DNA from: Podarcis vaucheri
Lineage: Eukaryota
Length of the DNA stretch: 64,000 nt
Assembly: GCA_965113315.1 (NCBI GenBank)
Contig: OZ220364.1
Strand: one strand, 5' to 3'
The translations under genes and the position numbers were made by a program. Within the stretch, counting starts at the first letter, position 1. Each line of letters starts with the position of its first letter. Shown here in pieces: positions 27,301 through 45,300 of this stretch. Under the pieces are notes generated by a model. That model had not been told where the DNA came from. It saw nothing but the letters and a program-made list of their open reading frames with translations, and searched no databases.

Positions 27301-30300
27301 CCCTTTGGTGATACTCAGGATCACATGAGGCAGATAAGGGAAGACAGGAAGAGCTGGCACAGCATCTTTTGTAGCCAAGAAAGGGGATGGGGGGAGTAGG
27401 ATAAAAGAACTCTAATTAAATAAAGTGATCCATTCATCATGTCTCCCGTTTCCATTACAAAACCCCATTTTTCAGGGCTTTATAACTCAGCCATAAAAAT
27501 GTGCTCTAGGCTGCAACTTGGCACACAAGGTCTCAGTTTGGGAGCACAGATTCATTCTTTCATTTGAAAAGAAAAGAAAAATGAGAAGCCTGTACTAGCT
27601 TCTTTTATTGTCTATTTCTGTATGCCACATTCTGACTAGAACAGGTGATGTTTACAATAAACAGTATACTACTAATAAGGACTGGCAATAACACAACACT
27701 GTTCAAACAATATGCATTTCCATCATTAGCATACAACATTCAAGCTATAGTTATAAACTCAGGAACCATATCTTTGTTTAAAAAAAGACAGAAAAAGAAG
27801 AGAGAACTTTTGAAACTAGAAGTATTATTTATTGGCATATGTAATGAGCGCCTATTTACTTATTTAATCCAGACTAATTAACTGCTAAATAAATACACTG
27901 GTACCTCGGGTTACTAATGCATCGGGTTACAAACACTTCGGGTTACAAACTCCACTAACCCGGAAGTAGTAACTCGGGTTGAGAACTTTGCCCCAGGATG
28001 AGAACGGAAATCGCATGCCGGCAGCAGCAGCGGGAGGCCCCATTAGCTAAAGTGTGCCTCAGGTTAAGAACAGTTTCGGGTTAAGAACGGACCTCCTGAA
28101 TGAATTAAGTTTGTAACCCGAGGTACCACTGTAAATAAGCACTAAGTAGTTTAAATATAATACAAGCAGGTCCTGCTTTCTGAACACAGTATGTTCCATG
28201 GAAACTGTTCACATAACGAGTCCATGGTTACCATTATTTCCTATGGATATATTTCTAATCTAGGATTTTTTGAATCTCTCTCCCTGCTTTTTCAATGGTT
28301 GCAGCCAATTAGCAAAAGAAAGACAAAATAAAAAACTGATTTGTCTCAACACTCCTACTCTCTGATTCATTCAGTCTAGTTCCCCCCTCCTTCTATTGTT
28401 TCTGCCCAGAAATGGTTGCTGACGGCCAGCAAAGCAAGGAAGTAAGAAAGCCATTTGTTTGGATAAGTGAATCTGCAGAGCATATAGCAAGATTTGGGCA
28501 TAATTGTTAATGTGAGGATAAGTGAATTTTTGGATAGCGAGCATGTGGATAGTAGGACCTAAGTATAGTATAAATTATTCCTTAAAGATAGCCATTAATC
28601 TAGACAATTTTTTGTTCCAGATGTAGTATTGTAATGTGCTTTTGAAAATGGCAATTGATGCAAAATGTAGTGGCCATGGAGGTAATGGGGCAGTGGATTG
28701 AATGCATTTACCGGTAATCCCCATTTTAAAAGTTAATCTGGTTGGCTTGGTGCTAAAAGTCCTGCTCCCATATATACCTGCCCATGCCTTGAGATGTACA
28801 GATGAGGCTTTCCTGGTGGTCCCAATACAGCCTGAAATACACAGCACAAGGCTTTGCGAAAGGACCTTTTCAGTTGTGGCCCCATGCCTGTGGAATTTCT
28901 TTGCCACTTAAATGTGTCTAGCTCCTTCAATAAATGTGTCTAGCTCCTGTGTCAATAATCAAATAAATAAATGATGTAGCTGGGAGAGCTACTGCGAAAA
29001 TTATGTCTGTTCTGACTGGCATCTCAAGCAAGAGGACTACACTGCATTAAACACAAACCACTCATTTCCTTCTGTGTGCCACACTAAGACTTCAGGGATT
29101 AGTCTTAAACTAGTTCTTCTGGTGAACTGAAAAGACTCAGGGACACATTTCATTTCATATGCAAGCATAAGCTACGGCAAAATTACTGCCAGAGAAAACA
29201 TAAAGATTAATCAAATCTGAATGTGTAGTCAGAGAGGTTGGAAACTTGATTAGAGCAGAGGTTAGGAATTAAGACAGGCATGGCCAAACTTGGTCCTCTA
29301 GCTGTTTTAGGACTACAGTTCTCATCACCCCAGACCACTGGTCCTGTTAGCTAGGGATGATGGAAGTTGTAGTCCCAAAACAGCTGGACGGCCAAGTTTG
29401 CCCATGCCTGAATTAAGAGATTGGAGGCCTGTACATATGCGATACAGTAGTACCTCAGGTTAAGAACTTAATTCATTCTGGAGGTCCGTTCTTAACCTGA
29501 AACTGTTCTTAACCTGAGGTACCACTTTAGCTAATGGGGCCTCCTGCTGCCACTGCACCGCTGCCATGCAATTTCTGTTCTCATCCTGAAGTAATGTTCT
29601 TAACCTGAGGTACTATTTCTGGGTAAGCGGAGTCTGTAACCTGAAGCGTATGTAACTTGAAGCGCCTGTAACCCGAGGTACACTGTATTAACAACTCAAA
29701 TTAAGGAAGAAATATTCTCTCCCCCATTCCTGGATGTGATTATATGTTCTACAAAGTTATAGCAGCTGGATCATGCGGTCCTATATTTTATTGAAGAGGG
29801 CTACCAATCACCATGTTGGTGGGGGTCTGACATTTTTGAAAGATGCAGGTAGTTTTTTTTTGTTATGGAAATTTATAACATAAATTATAGTGGCAAAAAT
29901 GAGTTGTGTGTACAAGGCTTTAGAGTGGGAGGTTTCAGGAAGCTGCTGACTACATAAGCCACAATAAGGACCAATTACTATGGCTGCATATTCCTTCCCA
30001 GAAAGGGTATTTCTGTTACCATAGTGTAATTGGCTGAAGATTCTTTACACATTTTCCCTACTGAATGGGAACCACACAATCTCTTTGTTTAAGTTGTAGT
30101 AGCCATGCACTTTTCAAACATATTCATTGGGCCAAACTCTAAACCCTTTAAGGTGCAGAGGAATGTTGTATTTTCACTAAGAAACATGCATCTCAGTCTA
30201 GCACAGAACAGCACAGAACTTAATGATAAACTTTTAAAATATTTTTATCTTAGTAGAATTTTTATTTTAACATACATTTTAAAATATTTTTATCTTAACA

Positions 30301-33300
30301 GAACTTGAGATGGCTGGCTATATTAAATGTACTATATTAGCATGCTCTATCAAGTGATTTAGTATTTGAATGAGATGAATGCTGGCCAGATGTACTGCAG
30401 TTTACAAATCAGCTGTTGTGTTCAAAACAGCAAATGTTTTAGAGCCCTTTGGCTAAAGAACTACACACACCTGCATATCAACTGGACAGACTCAATAGCC
30501 CATAAACACCAAACTCATCCATCAACTGCGGAACATTAACACTGCAAAATCTATCAGTTAAGTTAAAAAAAACTTAAGTGAACTTTGTATTATTGGAATA
30601 ATGCAAAGCACATTGGTGCACTTCAGCTGAACATGTACACTCAGCACAGCAGCTATATAGACTTCATCACAGTAGGCAAGTTCCAAATAAAATTAAATAT
30701 TTGTGAGTAACATATATCTCAATGGATTAGTTAAACACATGCTTAAACCTTTCCCATTCATATCAACAGTACATAAAAATGCTTTTCTGCAGTTTGATTT
30801 TATCTGATACTCTTAAGGCTTCAGCAATGATGAAAGGCTGGTATGAAGGTAGGTTTGTATTCATTCTTAGTAAAAACAGCATGGTACTAATATAGCACCT
30901 TCCTGATATCTGTGCCACATTTCTCACTGGGCAACTTTTGACACAGAAGTGTATAAGCGGATATTAGCTGGAAATCAGTATTTATTCTGATCTATTTATT
31001 AATGTTAATTAATTTTAGATATTATTGTCACCTGTATCTCAGAATGCAATGCTGGGATAAACCCCTACAGCCCTGAACACAAAAACACATTCTAAAAATG
31101 TAACTGTTAAAATATGTACCAGTGGGATAAGAACAATATCAGAAATATAGACCGTTGCTCCTGGAGGAAGCAAATAAAAACTGTGAAATGGGTACATCTA
31201 GCTTTGTTTGCTGTTCCTTAAACCAGGAATTTACATGAAGAAAAATACAACTTTAGAATAAACTGTTTACTGCTAAAAACCTGAATTTGATTTTGATTCA
31301 ATGTTTCATTTTATCCCATGCCCTTTGCTGACACTCTTGTGGCAGCATGTTATAACAGTAGATAGGAGTAGTGGGATCACCTGCTGTTTAGGCCCCTTAT
31401 GTTACCTACAAACAGCAGGATAAGGAAGGGTGTGAGGATGGAGTTTCAGTAATAACAGGGTGAATTTCCTGGCTTATGTCACCACCTTCCCATTACTCAA
31501 AAGATAATTTTCTTGTCTGTGACTACAGGAACTTGGGAGTTAAATCACTTGGCATTTCATATGGAGAAACACTTTGGCTTAAAATCCCCTCTACAAGAGC
31601 AAAGATTTGACAAGCTTGGCAGCTGAGCTTATATATTTATATGTTTCTCTGGGAGGTGAGAGGGGGAGTGAATAGAATATATAATCTCTTTCACAGGCCA
31701 CACAACAGAAAGTTCCAAGGGGGCCTTCTCTTTTGCACAGGAGAGATAATAGTCTCTCATCTTGACACACAAGGGTTTTAGGAAGGCAATTCTGCTTCTG
31801 CCAGCAGAATCTACACAGTGAATTGAAATAAAACAGAAAAAAATCAGTGCCAGTAAGTTCAGAATTTAGTGATGTCAAATTCCCCTCTAGGTGGCTTACA
31901 GCACATATAAAAAATTGTAAAACATCGGACATTAAACATTTCCCGATATAGGGCTGCCTTCAGATGTCTTCTAAACGTCAGATAGTTGTTTATTCCTTTG
32001 GCATCTGATAGGAGGGCGTTCCACAGGCTGGGCGCCACTACCGAGAAGGCCCTCTCCCTGGTTCCCTGTAAATTCACTTCTCGCAGTGAGGGAACCACCA
32101 GAAGGCCCTTCAAGCTCCAACCCACCTGTCCCCCTATTTCCAAACCCTTTCTCTTTAAATAGTTCTTGGGGGGAAACAGCTTGCCCAAAAGGGCAATGGC
32201 ATCCTTTTGTCTTGTACACTGCAGTGCAATGTGCTAGGCCCCATAACTTTTATCAAAAACTTTGACAAATGACTTTCACCAGCATCTCCAGTTCAAACAC
32301 TTTCCATAACAAGAACCTAACATAGTCTGTCATAACAAGGTAGCCCATTTTAAAGGAAAATATGTCACAGTAAAATCAAACTGAGGTGATGATCCAGCTG
32401 AAAGTTAAGTATTGTGATTCCAACTGTTTTGAATGGGACAGTTAAGTATGTGCTTAACACACCCATTCAAAACAATGGAACAAAATGCTTAGGTTTACTT
32501 GGTTCATGACTGTGGCGTTTGCCTCCTAGATGGGTCATAAGGAAAGGGTTAAAATGAGTGTGATGGCCAGTGAGAATGCAAGGGGGGAGTAAAAGTTAGA
32601 GTGGGAGGTTTTGAAAGTTAGTTGAGGTTTGGGAGTTGGAGAAGGAAGAGGGAAGAATAGGCAGTGGGTTGGTCGAGTTGCATTGCGTGGCGAGTTCCCG
32701 CCCCCCACCAAGATAAATAAACACACGAGACACCATAAATTAAGGTTAATTGGGCGAATTAGGCCACAACTTTATTGAATTCAGGAATGAGAGGCATTGG
32801 CTTAGGCATTGGTCCTAACGACTATCCGGCTCCAGCCCATTTGCTGGAGACACGGTGAAGGGTTAACACTGATCGGGGGAGTCTCCCGCTGAGGCACGTC
32901 GGCTAAGAGCTCCCCCGGGTCACCGCTCTGGGGCGTGCCTTTGGCCCACACCTCCATAGGCTTCGGACAGGGCCACGCCCCCCGGAGTCCTTTAACGGAC
33001 CACCCTTCGTTCACTGGGGGGAGGTGATGGCGTTCCTCCCCCCCACACATCCTCTTAACCCCTTCTTACCAATGCCTACCGCCAATGCCGAAGAGTTGTG
33101 ACGAGTTGCTACGAGGTAGGCGAAAAACCAAAAGGCTGGAAATTGCCAATTGGGAAAAATTCCTACCATGCCCCTTGCGGCGACAGGCCAAAGCCCATAG
33201 CAAAGTCAGACCTACCTAAAGCCCCAACTAAAGGGAGGGAGGGTGGGGAAACGTGGAGCTAGCCGGAGAAGAGAGGGCGAGCCCCCTCCGCTCCGGCCCT

Positions 33301-36300
33301 AAATAGGGCAAGCCACGCCCCCTCCAGCCAGCCGATTGGCTGGCCGGGAGGCGTGGCCGGATGGGATTCCCCTGCTCTCGCGGGGGCTGAGACCAGCCCC
33401 CGCTCACGTGGGGAAGGGCGTGATGCCCGCAACCCCACCTCCTGGGGCAGGCCCGGAAGTGGCTTTGCGTGGCGAGTTCCCGCCCCCCACCAAGATAAAT
33501 AAACACACGAGACACCATAAATTAAGGTTAATTGGGCGAATTAGGCCACAACTTTATTGAATTCAGGAATGAGAGGCATTGGCTTAGGCATTGGTCCTAA
33601 CGACTATCCGGCTCCAGCCCATTTGCTGGAGACACGGTGAAGGGTTAACACTGATCGGGGGAGTCTCCCGCTGAGGCACGTCGGCTAAGAGCTCCCCCGG
33701 GTCACCGCTCTGGGGCGTGCCTTTGGCCCACACCTCCATAGGCTTCGGACAGGGCCACGCCCCCCGGAGTCCTTTAACGGACCACCCTTCGTTCACTGGG
33801 GGGAGGTGATGGCGTTCCTCCCCCCCACACATCCTCTTAACCCCTTCTTACCAATGCCTACCGCCACCGAGCAGCCGCTCGCCGCCAATACTCTCAAGCC
33901 TGAATCCACTCCCTTATCCCCTTAGCAATATCCATCAGCCAAACATCGTTACCAGCATCCGAAAGATGCACGCCATCATACCGGTAGAGGGCCTCAATGT
34001 TGAAACGAATGCCTGGGTGGCTAATGACCAACCCCCCCAGGGCTGCCACTCTACGCACCACCGCCCGATCCAAGGCTTTCCTAGCCCTATTTATAGCTAT
34101 CGGGCACCTGCAATCTCTCCAAACCCGCCTCTCCATCAGCGAGGCCCAAATAATTGTGACATTCGGGTAAGCTGCCTTCAGCTCCTCGAAGTCGCTAAAA
34201 ATGTGCCACTGCAAATCAATTGCCTTCCTGTAGGCTAGGTCATTTTCCCCTAATTGTATAAGCAAAGCATCTGGGGGGCCCTCTACTGCCGCTCTGGTCA
34301 TAACTGCCGGAAGCATCTCGGCCCAGCGCATTCCCCTCCGGGAGACCCAGGAAATGGTGATGTGAGGTGGGAAGCCCAGGCATGGCCCGAGACCGGAATT
34401 AATGGCGCGGACCCTGGCCCAATGCACAATACTGTGCCCGATAATCCAGACGCGCGCCCCCATGTCACCTGTAGGAAATTGAGATAAAAGGCCATGGTCA
34501 ATCACTATCACAAATTCTTTCTCAAATAACGTTTGTACGCATTAGACTTCCAGCGACCTAAGTCCCTAATCCTTTCTGTTGTAAGACCCAAGTGCATTGC
34601 CGTGGTGGCTGCTCCGATCCTGAAGGAGTGTGCTGCAAAATCAGCCGCGGGGATGCCGCATGCTGCTATCGCTAAGCGCATGACCCGAGTGAACTGGTGA
34701 CGCGTCAAAGGTAAACCATCTGCATGGATCAATAGAGGCCCTGCCGAGGTGACCCTCAAGGATAAAAAGCGCCTCGTGTCTTTTACTGGGCATGGGCCAG
34801 GCCTGCCAGTAGGCATCAGCTGAACCAAAGCCCCCCTCCCGTACTGGTCCGTTTTGGAGCTGCGTATTCGTATTACCAAGTCCTCCCGTGACAAGGTAAC
34901 ATCGCTTAAAAGCAAGCCCCGGGAGGAACCGTGCCAACCTGCTTCATAAACTACCTCACCCACGCGCAGAGCTCCAAAAAAGGCAATGGAATATGCCGCT
35001 GAAAATAGGCGCGCCTCGTACTTTGACCAGCATACTGCACGCAATTTTTTATGGATTTGGGAGAGAATGTCGAATGATATCGGCCTTCTCGTATCGCAGT
35101 TTGGGGGCTGTAGCCTGCGCCAACCCTCTAACGTCCTTCGTATAACAAAATCGTCACAAGGATCTGTGGAAAATACCGCCTTGCAAAAGAATGAGATTGC
35201 CGCGGCTTGAAGGTTGAGGGTTCTGGGGGCGCGGCCCAAACGTCTTAGGTAAACTAGGTACGATAGCACCTCAGGCTTGACGGGAGGGGCATTGCTCTTG
35301 ATGGCTCGGGTTTTGCGGCGGAAGTTTAAAAAATCTGACCAAGCCTTCTTATAGGATCTCAAAGTGGAAGGTGCCAATGAGGCCATTACTCCCTGAATCA
35401 CTTCTGGCTCCCAGGCCTCTGGTCCCCATGCCTCTGGTCCCCGAGACTCCAAAGATGTTCCGGGAACGGCTGCGGCAGAAGCTCTGCATCCGGTGCCAAC
35501 GATCGGAAGCGGTCCATCTGAAAGCGAGATAGGGCGTCCGCGATGTCATTATTTACACCAGGCACAAATTTTGCAGAGAAGTGGATGTTGAGCTCTAAAC
35601 ACCGGAGAACGAAGGAACGCAGGAGGACGCCTACCCTTGGAGACCGCGCGACCTGCCTGGAAAGTACTGCCACCACGGCCTGATTGTCGGTGTGGAAGCA
35701 CACCCTATGGTTACTGAAGGTTTCCGGCCACAGGTGCACCGCCACTACTATCGGAAAAAACTCCAGGAAGGTTAAGTCTCTGGTAATGGGCCCCCCTTGC
35801 CAGTCGGCGGGCCAGCGCTGAGCACACCATTGGCCCCTAAAGTAAACACCAAACCCCAGAGAGCCCGAAGCATCTGAATGGACCTGGAAGTCAACCTGCA
35901 GCGACAGGTTGTCCTGCCACAGGGAAATGCCGTTGTAGTTCTGCAAGAACCTCAACCAGACTTCCAGGTCAGACTTCACTTCCTTGGATAGCCGTACTCT
36001 ATGGTGAGGGGAACGCAGCCCTGCTGACAATTTCGCGAGGCGGCCGCAGAATGGGCGGCCAGGGGAAACCACGCGGCAAGCAAAATTTAAGTGACCTAAC
36101 AGAGACTGGATTTGCCTGAGCGTAACTTTTCTTAGAGGGAGCAGCTGCCGAATCAGGTCGCCAAGCGCGATGAGTTTTTCCCTGGGAAGCTTTGAGGTCT
36201 GAGCGACCGTGTCCAGCTCGATACCCAAATAAACCATTGTCGTGGCCGGACCCTCAGTTTTGTCGGCGGCTAGAGGAACCCCCAGTTCCCCTGCCAATGA

Positions 36301-39300
36301 TATGAAGGCTTCGAGGAGCTCTGAGCACTTAAGGCTGCTATTGGCCACGAGGATAAAGTCGTCCAGGTAGTGCGACACGCCCTTGGCGCCGGTTCTAAAG
36401 CGAAGCGCCCAGTCTAGGAAGGTGCTGAATGCCTCAAAGGCTGCGCAGGCCACAGAGCAGCCCATGGGCATTGCCTTGTCTACAAAATATGCCCCCTCAA
36501 ATTTGAAGCCAAGCCACCGAAAATCTTCTGGATGAACTGGCAGGAGTCTAAAGGCCGACTCAATGTCACATTTTGCCAGCAGTGCCCCCTTGCCGAACTT
36601 GCGTATGAGCTGCACCGCTTGGTCAAACGTGGCATACCTAACTGTGCAGAGTTCCTGTGGTATCGCATCATTGACAGACCCCCCCTTAGGGTAGGAAAGG
36701 TTGTGGATCATGCGATACTCACCGGGCGCTTTTTTGGGGACTATGCCTAACGGGGAAATATGGAGGCCTTCGATTGGAGGGGCTAGGAAGGGGCCGGCTA
36801 CCCTTCCTGCTTTAATTTCCTTACTAATTTTCTTTTGGGCGACCTCGGGCATCTCCCTCACCGATTTTTGGTTTGGAGGATCACCTGAATTGGGGGGAAA
36901 GGCTACTGGGATCCTGAAACCAGTACTAAAGCCCTCCCATAAGTATTGCGCTGCCGTCCTGTTAGGATAAAGATCTAAAAGGTTTTTTAACGGTGTCAAC
37001 TTGATGGGGGACCAGGCTAAGCCCAGACTGAAATTACTGTCTGCCACCCTGGGGTCCGAATGGCGCTCCGTGGCCACCTCTCGGTCCCTGGTTATGGGCG
37101 CCTCTCCCACCCCGAAAGGGCTGCCTCCCTTTAATGCAGGCAGTGGCTGGGTGGTTACCTAGGCATTTTTCGCACTCGTGGCTGTACTTACAGACAGCCC
37201 GTGCACAAACCCCCTTGTTGTACTCCCAGCAGAGTCGCCTCTGCTTTGCAGCGGTTTTCCAAGGTCTCGACGACTCCTGGGGCTTCTTCTCCACGAAGGG
37301 ACCCACGTGGTCAGACCAGTAATTTTGGTCCCTCAGATCCCAGCGCGTGGACGACAACAGTGATGCATTTCTGCGGAAATCTTCATCATAATTTAGGGCA
37401 GCAATATCACCCGCTAAATCCCGTGCCCTCCTGACATGAGCTAGGTACGCAATCAAGTGCATCGCCCGCTTTGGATAAGCCGCGCTGACGACGCCCATGA
37501 ACACCTGGAACCCATCCAGCCAGTTGTCAAAAGTACGTTCGGGTCTAGGTGTCCTGTACCTACGATTACCATACTTGCGCTTCTTCTCCCCTTTACCTGT
37601 AAGCTTTGCTGGAGGTATCAGTCTGAAAACATCTATAAATTCTCCATTAAGGATCTTATTCCTCTTTCTTGGAGATAAATGAGAGCCTACGATGAAATCC
37701 GTAGACAGATTAGTGGACGTTTTAACATCCTGGACCAAAGCGCCATCCTTCCATTCGAGGGTCCCGTTAAAGGATTTCCTGTAGGAATTGGCCCTCCTCT
37801 CATTGACCCATAAAGGAAGACCCACAACGTCCTCCCCGTGGCCCCAATACTCCTCCCTAGGAGCATCACTATCTGAATCGGAAGAAGAAGAGGTACCTGA
37901 ATCATCCTCTGAATCCGAATGCCGACACTTCTTCTTCTTCTTTGAGGTGTGCTTCCTCTTCTCTTTCCTCTTCCCCGAGTGGCTCACAGGAATGGCTTGA
38001 TCCGGAACGGCTACCGGCTGCGCTGCTTGCGCCCCCTGGGCTTCCTCGTCGGAAGAAGAACTTGAGGCGCCCTCGGCTGATGCTGTCTGCAGTGGTGGGT
38101 TCTGAAAGAGACTTGGAACACCTGGATCCTTTTGCGGATTAGTAGCCCCAGGACAATGAACGCAAGTCTTACCCTTTCTGCCTCCCCTCGGGGCCCCTTT
38201 TGCCTTGGCCGGGCCGGTCGGCTGTGCCCGGGTATTCCTTTTGGGCCGGGGTGTTGACTCCTTGGCTGCCTTCAGCGCTGCCACCGCGGCTGCAGAAGTG
38301 CCGGGAAGTTGCACCTCGTTAGGTTGTGTGTCTGGGATGAAATCCTGAGTGAACGCTCTTGGTGCCTCCATCGCGGATACCGCCACCACCGGTGCCGCTG
38401 TCGATGGTGCCCCTGGAGCCAGCCCTGGTGCCGCTGTCACTTGCGCTGCCGGTGTCGCTGCCCCTTGTCCTGAGGATCTATGCCTATAGAAATCCTGAAA
38501 CGCTGTGAAAAAATCTGCCAAGGCTTGAGGGTTACTTGGGATTACAAAAGGTTGGGGCTCCTCCTGATTCCCCTGAGGCCCCCCAGCTGCGGTGGAGTTT
38601 ACTTGGTTACCTTGACCGGACATGATGTGATCTAGATTCTTGCTTATCTTGATCAATGAAACACCAACAACGTAGTATGGCTAATGTGCGTAGCTCAGTA
38701 TCGTCTGCACTGGCAAACTTTAATGGAATGATAGTTAACACACACAACTGCTCCTGTTCGATACTTTGCCCACCAGTAGAACAGCAGACAATCACCGTAG
38801 CTCAGTATTGTCCGCACTCAACCCAGTCGCCCAGAATTGTCCTCCCTGGATACCCACCAAAGAGCACTTTAGATATATGTATATGTATTATTACTATTCG
38901 TATCGCTGTAACTATATATTTATTTGCTTATCTATCGATTGCCGAATTGAATGATTGCAACTATATCACAATTAAAATTGTTAAGAGCAGGTAAAGCAAT
39001 GAAATGTAACGACCAATAGATGAGTTGGCCCAATGAACCAACTTCTAATTAACTTAAACGGAATAAAGCAACTTAATTAACGTGCAATTATAAAGGAGAG
39101 GAAATTAGTGAATGCGTGAGCTATCCCCAGCCTTCCCTTATATATTATAGAATGTCTACCGGCAGTCTATAGCCAAAGACAATAGAGTAATATCAGACTA
39201 ATTTCCTATGAACCAAATTATAATTTGTTTAACTGCAACAGAGAGGCAAGGTCACTTGAAAGATAATTGCAGACAAGGAGTTTTATCAAGCAAAGCAAGG

Positions 39301-42300
39301 CACCCTAGGAGCCCTCTACGCTCCTGCAAATAAACCAAATGAATTTAATTACCAGATAACTGTAGGCTAATATAATAAGCGGTCTATTTTACTTTGTATA
39401 AGGGGCACCTAAGATCTTAAGCTAAGCAGCCAATTGAAATGCTTTATCGGATAGTATACGTCCTATAACTAATTAGGAATAAGCCTTATAAACTCTTCAA
39501 GCACTCTGTAAATATTCCCCGCCACCCGGGGCAGCCCCTTCTTGTGCTGCCGGTATCGTGTGAGCCGTGCTGCTAGCTAGCTCTTTAACCCCCTTTTCCC
39601 AATGAATGAATAGGTATTGCTCTATACCTCCTATATTTACTTATGGAAGGAGTGAGGTAGACAGTCTAGCAACAGGCTTAGATCCCACCCGGTTTGCCTA
39701 GCCTAAGATGGCCGCCGCCGCCAGGCCACGTGGGCAAACAAAGATGGCGGCCGAAGGCTATCCGTTGCCTAGCAACGGAGGAAACCCCCAGGCAAAGTTG
39801 TGCTACAGACGAAGACTCCCGGACAAGACGGACGCAAGCGATAGACAATAGAAGCCCGTGCTAGACCAAGTCCCGCAAGAGAAACAAACCGCAATAGCAG
39901 GAAAGCGACCACACAGTGAGCAAAGAATCAACGCGCTCCAAGGATCAGTGCCTTAAACCTCCCGCCAAATTCAATTGCATAACAAGATACAACCTGATCC
40001 GAATCTCTGCAGAGCCACGTGGGTGGAGCGAAGGAGGAGGGTTGCCGGAGGGAGGTAGTCAGCTGGCTGGCGGGACGCGCGCTGCCTTGGAGGGCTGAGA
40101 GATCACTCCCCGAGCCGCCGGAGACCTACGAGCATAAGCCCCCCCCCCCAAGGAACAAAAACCAACCCCAAGCGATCTCAGCTCTTTCTGACCTCGCGGT
40201 GCAACGGAGCACGCCAAGTCGATAAGGAGAAAAGGACTCCCCGACAGTGATTTCAGCTCAAAAGTAAAGCAGCGGCAGTCACTGCAGCAAGGCTAATGGC
40301 TGCTGAAACAACGGTTCTCCGGTTGGTGAGCGAAGGAGCGCTGTACGCTAAACCGATACGGGGAAAAGAACTCTCCGCCAGTGATTTCAGCTCAAAATTA
40401 AAAGGAAAGCCGCGGTAGCCACTCCGCCCAAGCTAATTGCTGCTGAGATGGTTCTCCTGTGGTGGGCGAAGGAGCGCTCCGAAGCGCTTGTGCTGATGCA
40501 GTTCCACGCGGCAGCAAGAGGGCGAGTGGATTTCCGACGCGATCAGCTGGAGAAACGTGGAGAAACGTGGAGCTAGCCGGAGAAGAGAGGGCGAGCCCCC
40601 TCCGCTCCGGCCCTAAATAGGGCAAGCCACGCCCCCTCCAGCCAGCCGATTGGCTGGCCGGGAGGCGTGGCCGGATGGGATTCCCCTGCTCTCGCGGGGG
40701 CTGAGACCAGCCCCCGCTCACGTGGGGAAGGGCGTGATGCCCGCAACCCCACCTCCTGGGGCAGGCCCGGAAGTGGCTTTGTGAGAGAGTGAGAGGAATT
40801 GTTAGGTTGAGTCAGACAGATAGTTGGAATAATCAGTTTGGAGTTGTTAGGAACTAAGATTAAGAAACTGACAAGAGAAAAATTAACTGAAACTATACGC
40901 TTGTTCCTGCATTTAAAAATAAACTTGATTATTTGTTAATGTTAACAACTGTCTGGACTCCGTGTGTCCCTGTGAGAAACGGGGTGGTGGCAGCGAATAA
41001 AGCAATCACAGTGGTGGCACAGGGTCAATAGACCGTCAAACGTCCGGGGGCCCTGTGTGATCGCCACAATGACCTAACACAATTTTATCTTATGGGACGT
41101 TTTTGTATGATAGCCTTTTCTGTTTCACAATAATGACAGCTAAGTTGCATTATCCACTATCTTTGTTTTAACACAATTTGCTTTCAGTTACCTGAATCCA
41201 TTGTCTGTAAGATGGCAAGTGCCTCCATTCTGGCAGGGATTCTGAATACAGGCATTAATAGGAGTACTGCAGTCTCGACCCTAACAACAACAACAACAAC
41301 AAAAAGTCCATGTAAAATGGTTACTCCTATTTTATCTTTGATGCAGACGCTGATTCTCATCTCCCTTGCCTGCATTTTCTCATTGAGAGACACAAAGGAT
41401 GCAAACTTCAGAAACAGATCATCCAGTCCTATTCACTGAAAGCATTTTCCTTAAAGCAGGGTTTTGAGAAGAGAAGAAGAAATAGTCAAGTGGGAATCGA
41501 AAATATAGTTATTTTATCACCTAGAGATAGTTGCTTCTTATGTAGTAATGCACTTGTAAAATATCAAACATAAGCAATAAGAAATGAATATATATGAGAC
41601 ATAAAGCAAGATACATAATGTTTGTAACTTAAACAACATCTCAGCAAAGTCGCATTATGTACTATTGACTTTTATCTTTGTAGCAGAGTTAATTCGTTAA
41701 AGATACCAAGCAAGTTAGTGTTTATACCATGGGTAGGCAAACTAAGGCCCAGGGGCTGGATCCGGCCCAATCACCTTCTAAATCTGGCCTGTGGATGGTC
41801 CAGGAATCAGTGTGTTTTTACATGAGTAGAATGTGTGCTTTTATTTAAAATGCATCTCTGTGTTATTTGTGGGGCCTGCCTGGTGTTTTTACACGAGTAG
41901 AATGTGTGCTTTTATTTAAAATGCATCTCTGGGTTATTTGTGGGGGCATAAATACAGTACGGCCCCCCACAATACAGTACGGCCCACCACAAGGTCTGAG
42001 GGACAGTGGACTGGCCCCTGCTGAAAAAGTTTGCTGACCCCTGGTTTATACCTAAAAGCAAACTTTCAGTTGACAAACACCTCTGTCAAGCTGCTTTGCT
42101 TAGTGGTCACCTAACTATCCTTGTGGAATCAAAGCTTATTAAACTGTTGTCAGATTGGCATGTATGCCTATGTAATCAAATGTGTCATTTATGCCCACTA
42201 ATACACACAAAAGGACACCTGCAACAAGCTACACTAAATTAATGAATAAATAAATTTTAAAAGCAAGTCAAGGAGACTGCATTTTGCATACAACACCAGG

Positions 42301-45300
42301 TAAAGCTTAAATTTCTTTGCTCTTCAGATACTTTCAATGTTGTATCTTTAAAGCATAACTTCAAAAGAATATAAAAGGCTGATTATATCTTAGCTAGAAA
42401 TATTTTATCTGATTTCTACAGCATTAAGCAGTGTTAAACATTGCACCAAGAACAGGGAACTTTCCCCAGTTCAAGGGCCACCTTCTGGTGCCAACATCTC
42501 AGTGATAGGCACGGCCAGAGGCAAAATGAAGTGAGTAGTGAAGTAGTGAGTAGTAGTCTAGATTCTGCACGCACTAGCACACTTCTCATTCCAGCTAGAC
42601 AAAAACACTTAAGGTGGGGTAGAAAGCAGGGCTGGTGAGGTTGTGTGGCTTGGGAAGACACCCAAGAGTCAGATAGAGAGGCCTGGAAGGCACATCTCGG
42701 GTTAAGTCCTTAATTCGTTCCGGAGGTCCGTACTTAACCTGAAATTGTTCTTAACCTGAAGCACCACTTTAGCTAATGGGGCCTCCTCCTGCCGCTGCGC
42801 CGCCGGAGCATGATTTCTGTTCTCAACCGGTAACAAAGTTCTTAACTTGAGGTACTATTTCTGGGTTAGCGGAGTCTGTAACCTGAAGCATATGTAACCT
42901 GAAGCGTATGTAACCTGAGGTACCACTGTACATAAATATATAGATTTTGCTTCACTAATGCTTATTGGAATAAAACGATGGGAGGAAACTGACATCATAC
43001 TAAGGTGATTGTTCTATCAGGGCAAGCATTTCATCCAGTTTATGCTGCCACATTTTCACACATTTCATCACCAATCTACTGAGGACAAAAAGCAGCTTGG
43101 ATTTGATAAGATCTTTCTTGCTAAAGATAACATTCTGAAACCTTTGCTGGGCAAATGCAAGAATGTGACAGAGTGCATCAGGGAAACTGAGTTCATTGTT
43201 AAATGGCTGCATTGCTTATAAGAGCAGCAGTGCTTTGAATCTGATGTTTCGGGAATGTGCTTTGTATGCAATCTCAACCACCTAAAAAAAGGTGTGGAGC
43301 TAGAGTACATCTCACAAGGGAGACATGAGAGCTCTCACAGGACTTCTCTGTCTCAACCATAATTGGGAGTAGTTCCCCTTGAACTAGGAATTTCTCACTT
43401 GCAAACAAATTCAGTTACAGATATAAAGAAAGCATAAAGTCATTGATTGGCATCTTGACTCACACAAAGATGAAGTATAATTTGTAATAATAAATAATAC
43501 CTGGGGATCTTACAAGAGCCACTTGTTGCCCAGTGGCTGCATTGCTAACCTTGGAAGGAAGAAGTGGTACAATCAGCATTCTACACCACTACTTGACATG
43601 ACTAACATAATTCAAATGCATCTGACTTCCTGTTTGAACACAACTATATCCATTTTACTTTAAATTTCTCTCAATACTACAGCATAAATGGCTTTTATTA
43701 GTTTCCAAAACATATCAATATTTTGGTAAATATGAAAATGGCCTCATAGAGGAATTGTTGGACCCCCTTTCATAAACAACCCTCTTATACCATCTGAAAA
43801 GCCACTCCTGAAAACCAGATTAAGTTCAAGAGTGGCCTCTGACACAAGGAGCTGAAACTGAAGAAAAGTAAATAGGGAAAAACTTAGTGAATGTACAGAA
43901 CAACATGGACATGCCCAAGGGGCTCTTTGGATCCCCACCCCCGGAGATGTGTTTGAATGGAGGACCATGTCTGTGTGGCACTTTAGATGCACAAAGTGTT
44001 TTAGAGTACATGGAGAAGGGTATCAAACTTCAGAAGAGATTAAGCACACATCTTGCATACGTAAATGTCCTAGGGTCAATTTCCTACCATCTCTAAATCT
44101 CAAGCGGCAGGGCTGGGAAAAACCCTGCCTGAGATCTTGGAGGGCCACTTGCCAGCCGGAGTAAACAATACTGAGCTAGATGGACCAATTGTCTGTTCCA
44201 GTATAAAGCAGCTTCATATGTTTACAATCTTTGCAAGTCCTCAGCACAGCCAAGGGCTTTGGGACTTCAACACATCCAACCCCTATGAAGTCTAAGCAGA
44301 GTTTTACTCTGGTTTCCCACTCATTTACACAGTAGAAAGAGTTAAAAAGTGGTATTACACCAACTTATGATCCATTGCTTACAGAAGTTCATTCGATTAA
44401 TATTGATATACTTTTTGGGAGTGCTTCTTTTATGTCTGGTGAGGCACTACAGTGCTCATCAAGGAATATAAATGTCCATGCAGATAGCCTCTAAGCCGGC
44501 CTTCCACCAATCCAGTGACATCCAGATGTTTTGAACTCCAACTCCTATCAGCTCCAGCCAGCATGGCCAATGGTGAGGGATGATCAGAGTTAAAGTTCAA
44601 AGCTTCTGGATGGCACCAGACTGGGGAAAGCTACTCTAATTTAGCTACAATTGGTCCCCAAGTTCCATGTCTAAGACTTTATCCAGTGAATTCTACTCAA
44701 TTAATTCAACACTCCAGCTTCATTTGTGACTACTTTCATCTGCAGCAACACATGCAGCTGAAGACTTGCTACATCTTCTGTGCTCCAGATAAGGAAATAT
44801 TTTTTGAGTTGCCTGACTGAATAATCAATTAAACTCTTTCAACCATTCTTGGATTAGGGGTCCTGCCATCTAACTGATGTAGCAACGCACTCCTCCACAC
44901 AAGATTTTCTTCACATCGACATCAAACAAGGAATAACAAATGCTGAAAGGGCAGACTCAATACAATTTATCAAGGTAAAGGAAATAGCTTCCAGATGGAC
45001 AGACGTGTTTGGTGCTGGTTGGTGAGAAGGAAGCAAGGTATTGTTACTGAATTAGCATCACACTCTAGAAGAACAGCTTGGTACAAAAAGAATTATCTTT
45101 TCATATGGTTCACATTTGAATTTGTCAAATGTCACTCCTGTAAAAAATATATGTGGCAACAATGTAGAGGTTTTCTTGAGGGTTGTAGAAGGGCTTCTAC
45201 TCTCTTTCTCCCATGTCTCTGGTACTAGTTGCTCTTTTACTCCATACTATCTGAATACGGCCCATACAGATGCAACAGTATTTTTAGATTAGTATGTACA

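Follow-up and report, generated by a model that had tools for sequence, protein, structure and literature searches.

A Ngaro retrotransposon in the Podarcis vaucheri genome

The 64,000-nucleotide stretch of DNA analysed here (the window; contig OZ220364.1 of assembly GCA_965113315.1) contains an apparently intact Ngaro tyrosine recombinase (YR) retrotransposon of 8.1 kb on its minus strand (Table 1). The split direct repeats are arranged A1...B1-A2-B2, as in the definition of Ngaro elements given in the part of PMC9210276 covered. The order gag, RT/RH, YR, with the YR frame at -1 relative to that of the reverse transcriptase (RT), is likewise that of Ngaro, as are the SGNH ORF that follows YR and the lack of a methyltransferase match in a Pfam scan. 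ORF1 gave no match in the Pfam scan, while the ORF3 translation, read directly, shows the HSFRIG and RW motifs. The closest proteins come from Podarcis and Zootoca. Three further copies are ~100% identical over 401 nt, so this is a young family.

The 5' region of the element (38730-40550, minus strand) is long, at ~2 kb, and carries a 73-nt direct repeat at 40196/40330. Coverage by probable-RNA contigs falls at ~38730 and resumes near 39850-40070, which may reflect a leader intron or divergence of the relative from which the contigs derive. A short MITE-like repeat with inverted ends is present elsewhere in the window (copies at 27901-28138, 29443-29681 and 42696-42935). Many of the Ngaro matches listed, often decayed, sit on a single 41-Mb contig (C41), perhaps the W chromosome or other heterochromatin.

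Table 1 Annotated and predicted features of the Ngaro element in the window
Feature	Position	Strand	Basis
Ngaro YR retrotransposon, apparently intact	32683..40781 (ends approximate)	-	split direct repeats, four ORFs, end sequences
Repeat A1	40557..40781	-	100% identity to 33243-33467 across 225 nt
Repeat A2	33243..33467	-	pairs with A1
Repeat B1 (at least 300 nt)	33458..33757	-	99% identity to 32676-32975
Repeat B2	32676..32975	-	pairs with B1
ORF1, Gag-like, 529 aa, ATG at 38623	37034..38623	-	lacertid homologues at most 88% identical
Cys/His zinc-finger region of Gag	37136..37231	-	C/H columns identical throughout an alignment of 26 ORF1 proteins
ORF2, RT/RNase H, +1 frame	35398..37158	-	RVT_1 E 2.5e-13
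ORF3, tyrosine recombinase (YR)	34508..35545	-	Phage_int_SAM_4 E 0.0018, under curated cutoff
ORF4, SGNH hydrolase-like	33894..34541	-	Lipase_GDSL_2 E 1.1e-4, under curated cutoff
Predicted +1 shift site CCC_TTT_CGG	37112..37120	-	TTT is Gag codon 503
Phase-1 splice donor CAG/GTAC in gag	37890..37900	-	exon end 37897
Splice acceptor in frame with recombinase	35517..35540	-	GT..AG joint 37897 to 35517
Candidate phase-1 acceptor before ORF4	34468..34490	-	12/16 pyrimidines then CAG; phase fits gag donor

A candidate +1 frameshift site at the ORF1/ORF2 overlap

Within the overlap, the ORF1 frame reads CAG (37123), CCC (37120), TTT (37117), CGG (37114) and GGT, and the ORF2 frame reads CCT TTC GGG GTG, i.e. 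+1, having opened 41 nt upstream of TTT. The first-pass annotation had placed ORF2 in the +1 frame, open only from 37158 after a TAG at 37161-37159, and all of these coordinates proved right on re-reading. The same holds for its first ORF2 ATG at 36852, downstream of the GFSTGFRIP segment and inside RT, and for its reading of CCC TTT CGG at 37120-37112, from which a UUU-to-UUC slip enters the ORF2 frame. By frame arithmetic, a +1 shift would add 571 aa from 37113 to give a predicted Gag-Pol of 1074 aa in total.

The arrangement corresponds to the PA-X class of shift sites in combining an in-frame UUU_CGN (YCC_UUU_CG) with a downstream ORF in +1. TTT_CG occurs in frame once among 549 ORF1-frame codons, and another one is present in ORF2; taken by itself, the lone in-frame TTT_CG of the window element is not beyond chance. 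No excess 3' RNA structure was found, with z-scores of 0.16 for the window site and means of -0.34 (30 sites) and -0.44 (18 sites), values that denote no excess structure, which differs from independence of structure.

Conservation of the site in the source genome and in lacertids

Junctions were compared across 100 loci of the source genome, 40 of which had been hand-picked from 120 further listed matches in favour of distinct open-frame lengths. Removal of 3 loci without a zinc-finger match and of 19 duplicates left 78 unique junctions. TTT_CGN is present in 69 of these (CGG 47, CGT 16, CGA 4, CGC 2), while eight of the remaining nine have CA or TG replacing CG, as expected from CpG decay, and the last reads TTC_CAG. 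The first-pass annotation had proposed asking whether TTT_CG is kept in the ORF1 frame without synonymous change, and had named free change to TTC or AGR as evidence against a shift. The motif is indeed kept, with N taking all four bases, and the 78 junctions include one TTC_CAG and zero AGR.

Clustering at 90% identity gave 35 clusters, of which 25 subfamily representatives have an open ORF1. TTT (25/25), CCC (25/25), CGN (24/24) and the preceding CAG (23/23) are invariant in this set, compared with 13 TTC and 12 TTT for a control invariant Phe in the same representatives; other conserved Pro codons use all four forms, as does the next Gly. CAG_CCC_TTT_CG (37123-37113) is nearly invariant among the closest subfamilies, and site conservation exceeds the amino-acid need. 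Selection acts on the nucleotide sequence of the motif itself.

More distant loci (RT 62-77% identical) carry TTT_CG in 24 of 30 cases, nine of the 30 repeating earlier loci; in the remaining six the site is broken or changed. Flanking codons vary around the kept TTT_CG, with TCC, TCG or CTT before it and AAA, AAG or GGN after it. One subfamily has an ORF2 that opens only 17 nt upstream of TTT, with no ATG until 519 nt into RT. At the protein level, F-R follows the zinc finger in 30/34 ORF1 proteins, and two Zootoca isoforms of one locus are jointly encodable only by TCC_TTT_CGT, which is the PA-X sequence. A profile search for distant Gag proteins gave almost only lacertid proteins, and the DNA-level comparison covered the source genome and the metagenome and MAG elements.

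The G run that follows the site invites a different reading. Gag and Pol are fused in frame in twelve of the sampled copies, in nine cases by a change from G7 to G6, and the same fusion is seen in a Podarcis protein (P0022), as might be found if the polymerase slipped on the G run to give an in-frame RNA, or if ribosomes shifted by -2. We regard this as very improbable: the G run is missing in many subfamilies (21 intact junctions have a single G), the window element has G4, and the codon before TTT is too variable for -2 re-pairing. The fusions themselves come from a choice of loci biased towards long open frames, and some may be assembly errors in homopolymers. Losses of one base from the G run span several subfamilies (L062-L064, L067, L068, L075, L076, L078, L083; also L029, L046, L082) and could reflect cis-favoured slippage or assembly error.

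Recurrence of the site in divergent elements

Metagenome and MAG scans yielded 88 loci (80 of 159 matches, plus 8) with an RT identity of 36-50%, probably representing host-animal DNA, while viral contig scans found no relatives. The loci were called Ngaro-type by RT similarity, Gag zinc finger and YR, most contigs being too short for split repeats. Bacterial and archaeal MAG records (L181-L188) also hold Ngaro-type contigs, likely through host contamination. ORF2 is in +1 for all but five of the metagenome loci with a recognisable zinc finger. An intact overlap is present in 54/88 loci, from which four (short ORF1 or overlap) and three near-duplicates were taken out to leave 47 elements. YR was found in 31/47 (29/31 elements with enough DNA), and lies in the -1 frame in 28/31.

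An in-frame TTT_CG lies inside the overlap in 30 of the 47 divergent elements. Codon shuffling gives an expectation of 5.4 elements, which rises to 17.3 when amino acids are kept, with a maximum of 29 in 2000 draws. Control windows of equal length, which are the most conservative control, contained the motif in 11/47 elements, twice (Fisher p 1.5e-4). At 11/47 the background is appreciable, and the F-R dipeptide is frequent in the RG-rich tails. Within the overlaps, TTT_CG occurrences are distributed 36/2/5 by frame, and F-R pairs are written TTT_CG in 36/63 cases as opposed to 60/185 outside (p 9e-4). An unbiased pentamer scan of the overlaps ranked TTTCG top (z 10.7, with the runner-up at 4.4), and 22/35 elements have the site after clustering at 65%. 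The site goes beyond chance because it is conserved both in the subfamilies (TTT in 25/25) and in the divergent elements (30/47 versus 11/47).

The site lies upstream of, within or downstream of the zinc finger, and its position clusters by clade in a quick tree, on which the site-less elements are scattered. An early idea that long-overlap elements are site-less was wrong, as their site sits upstream of the zinc finger. The motif is not universal, since it is absent from 17/47 distant elements: in five of these, A or C comes next to TTT_C, in the place of G, and the other 12, including a 4-member clade, are without any TTT_C. No alternative motif stood out among the 17 (best z 2.8).

Three further sequence patterns were observed in this set. 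GGA_CCC_Y in the overlap is common to five members of one site-less clade (L166, L175-L178) and is possibly a different +1 site. The ORF1 of site-less L107, L131 and L162 ends in AGG/AGA/CGA_TTC followed by a stop, where a stop-dependent shift is possible. A conserved C-x-C-C-K-Y lies directly before the RT N-terminus in one clade (L104, L105, L109, L110, L114, L118, L125, L129, L133, L136, L143).

The last ORF2-frame stop is located a mean of 60 nt upstream of the site, versus 62 nt expected for an untranslated frame, and the ORF2 frame is without stops for 103-385 nt downstream of it. This is the pattern expected if ORF2 translation begins at the site. The ORF2 open frame tracks the site. 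A length correlation (rho 0.88) is given no weight, being in part circular. RT might instead start at its own AUG or CUG, by means of an internal promoter or entry, with TTT_CG kept by amino-acid or dual-coding constraint. Indeed, an ORF2-frame ATG occurs before or near the RT start in 39/47 distant elements, and a CTG is found 9-12 ORF2 codons upstream, at shifting positions, in 38/58 source-genome copies. However, the ATGs occupy at least 30 different positions, and 22/58 copies lack one ahead of RT; variation is free at the base after TTT_CG despite altering the ORF2 residue; and stops accumulate at the background rate in the ORF2 frame upstream of the site. Initiation at an ORF2 start codon is thus unlikely in our view.

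Splicing of the recombinase, and a test for splicing at RT

Four contig runs of a relative from two studies, guessed to be RNA and with 10-15% of the words, were inspected for transcripts; such contigs drop rare forms. The gag donor (CAG/GTAC) is present in 59/78 source-genome copies. One probable-RNA contig (X1, depth 10.5) contains the joint from this donor to the recombinase acceptor, with a short side of only 25 letters. The CAG of this acceptor is found in 24/24 metagenome elements containing it, versus 431/859 RT Gln codons. The recombinase is therefore likely spliced rather than frameshifted, and the predicted GagN-YR fusion has 578 aa. At the candidate acceptor before ORF4 no RNA joint was seen in the probable-RNA contigs; the predicted GagN-SGNH fusion, from a joint of 37897 to 34468, has 433 aa.

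The existence of a conserved gag donor, in an element that appears to splice to its recombinase, raises the question of whether ORF2 is similarly reached by splicing near the junction, with CAG/CCC as the acceptor; CAG precedes CCC in 23/23 of the close subfamilies. Against this, the junction CAG has 5/16 upstream pyrimidines compared to 13 at the recombinase acceptor and 12 at that of the hydrolase, its phase is mismatched to the known donor, and it is replaced by CGG or AAG in other families. No position before the RT start has AG in more than 10/50 rows of the metagenome set, and in the source genome AG reaches at most 20/54, with the anchor misplaced in some rows. Unspliced contigs bridge the ORF1/ORF2 junction in three runs (X1, X5 and X7). 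Among the joints listed, the sole gag-to-ORF2 joint (37511 to 36793) has non-canonical ends, skips 717 nt and keeps the gag frame. A spliced mRNA supplying ORF2, set out beforehand as evidence against recoding, was thus looked for, and neither a conserved pyrimidine tract with an AG in frame before RT nor, among the joints listed, one delivering RT was found. The same test detects the recombinase acceptor, demonstrating that it works where an acceptor exists, and we give little credence to a spliced ORF2.

Proposed route to Gag-Pol

We consider it very likely, from the comparative evidence, that a low-level +1 shift at UUU_CGN yields Gag-Pol and is the source of RT. Conservation, together with recurrence at non-homologous positions, lends support to the original suggestion of Gag-Pol synthesis by virus-like +1 recoding. 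ORF2 would be reached when a small share of ribosomes slips by one base: by analogy with PA-X and PLEKHM2, tRNA-Phe on the P-site UUU would re-pair on UUC with the CGN codon waiting in the A site, leading to the junction peptide QPF-GVGEAP. The 1074-aa Gag-Pol would be made at ~1% of the level of the 529-aa Gag, without a stimulatory RNA structure. For PA-X, mutation of UCC that placed CCC (or TCC/GGG/AAA) at the E site reduced shifting by 40-70% relative to UCC (PMC3498833, part covered), hence shifting may be weak at the CCC site of the lizard. The recombinase would likely come from spliced RNA using the phase-1 gag donor, as one contig and conservation suggest, and the hydrolase perhaps from spliced RNA using the same donor.

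With less confidence, we also lean towards UUU_CGN +1 shifting being a general and ancient Pol route in animal Ngaro, the site having been relocated across clades relative to the Gag zinc finger. One pre-mRNA would then give rise to four Gag-headed proteins: Gag itself, Gag-Pol through the shift, and two fusions spliced from one donor, Gag-recombinase and Gag-hydrolase. If this is true, Ngaro elements form a large reservoir of naturally occurring PA-X-class sites in chromosomes.

In the literature searched, the way in which YR retrotransposons express RT when the frames overlap and a start codon is lacking has so far only been guessed at, and the present model specifies where the shift would occur, in which direction and with what junction peptide. 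The PA-X class, so far comprising viruses and two vertebrate genes, would gain a widespread group of retroelements, and the model would account for database entries that start Pol at varying chance ATGs. Moreover, a supposed YR frameshift is reassigned to splicing. A shift in Ngaro would set the Gag:Pol ratio, and dozens of natural variants are available for the study of +1 slippage.

Comparison with known systems

Comparisons in this section refer to the parts covered of the papers cited by PMC number. No Ngaro/DIRS shift site was found in the literature searched, which includes PMC3783388, PMC8547959, PMC6681497, PMC13003380, PMC3266345 and PMC7192593 in the parts covered; Poulter and Butler 2015, Goodwin and Poulter 2004, Repbase and supplements were outside its scope and may bear on novelty. 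The covered part of PMC5009743 has no mention of DIRS or Ngaro, and the Ngaro description in that of PMC9210276 says nothing of a shift site or of how RT is reached. Xenopus Ngaro elements with an SGNH hydrolase, e.g. DIRS-53_XT (PMC9210276), share the A1...B1-A2-B2 repeats, the overlapping gag, RT/RH, YR and SGNH ORFs and the lack of a methyltransferase match. Poulter and Butler 2015, as quoted in PMC13003380, considered the YR ORF probably frameshifted, in contrast to the present element, in which splicing seems to serve YR and frameshifting RT.

YCC_UUU_CG shifts at ~1% in mammalian cells without structure, with +1 junction peptides (PMC3498833, PMC11451614). Influenza A PA-X (UCC_UUU_CGU; PMC3498833) and human PLEKHM2 (UCC_UUU_CGG; PMC11451614) share with the Ngaro site the YCC_UUU_CG core, a +1 downstream frame, the lack of a required structure and synonymous-site conservation. 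They differ in that the shift leads to a short alternative tail and is backed by mass-spectrometry evidence, whereas the Ngaro shift is predicted and would deliver an essential polymerase. Furthermore, their 5' codon is UCC, while that of the Ngaro element is CCC here and varies across relatives.

Yeast Ty1/Ty3 resemble Ngaro as retrotransposons making Gag-Pol through a +1 shift, but are LTR elements with another motif (Ty1 CUU_AGG_C) that depends on scarce yeast tRNAs and reaches efficiencies of up to ~40% (PMC5052127, PMC3498833). UUU_CGN is also the predicted shift site of amalgaviruses (PMC5052127), in which, as in Ngaro, a structural ORF1 is followed by a polymerase in +1, all four CGN are used, a minority of members are without the motif and the site is predicted from sequence. 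Amalgaviruses are dsRNA viruses with an RdRp, in contrast to the chromosomal Ngaro retroelements, and the position of the Ngaro site relative to the zinc finger differs by clade.
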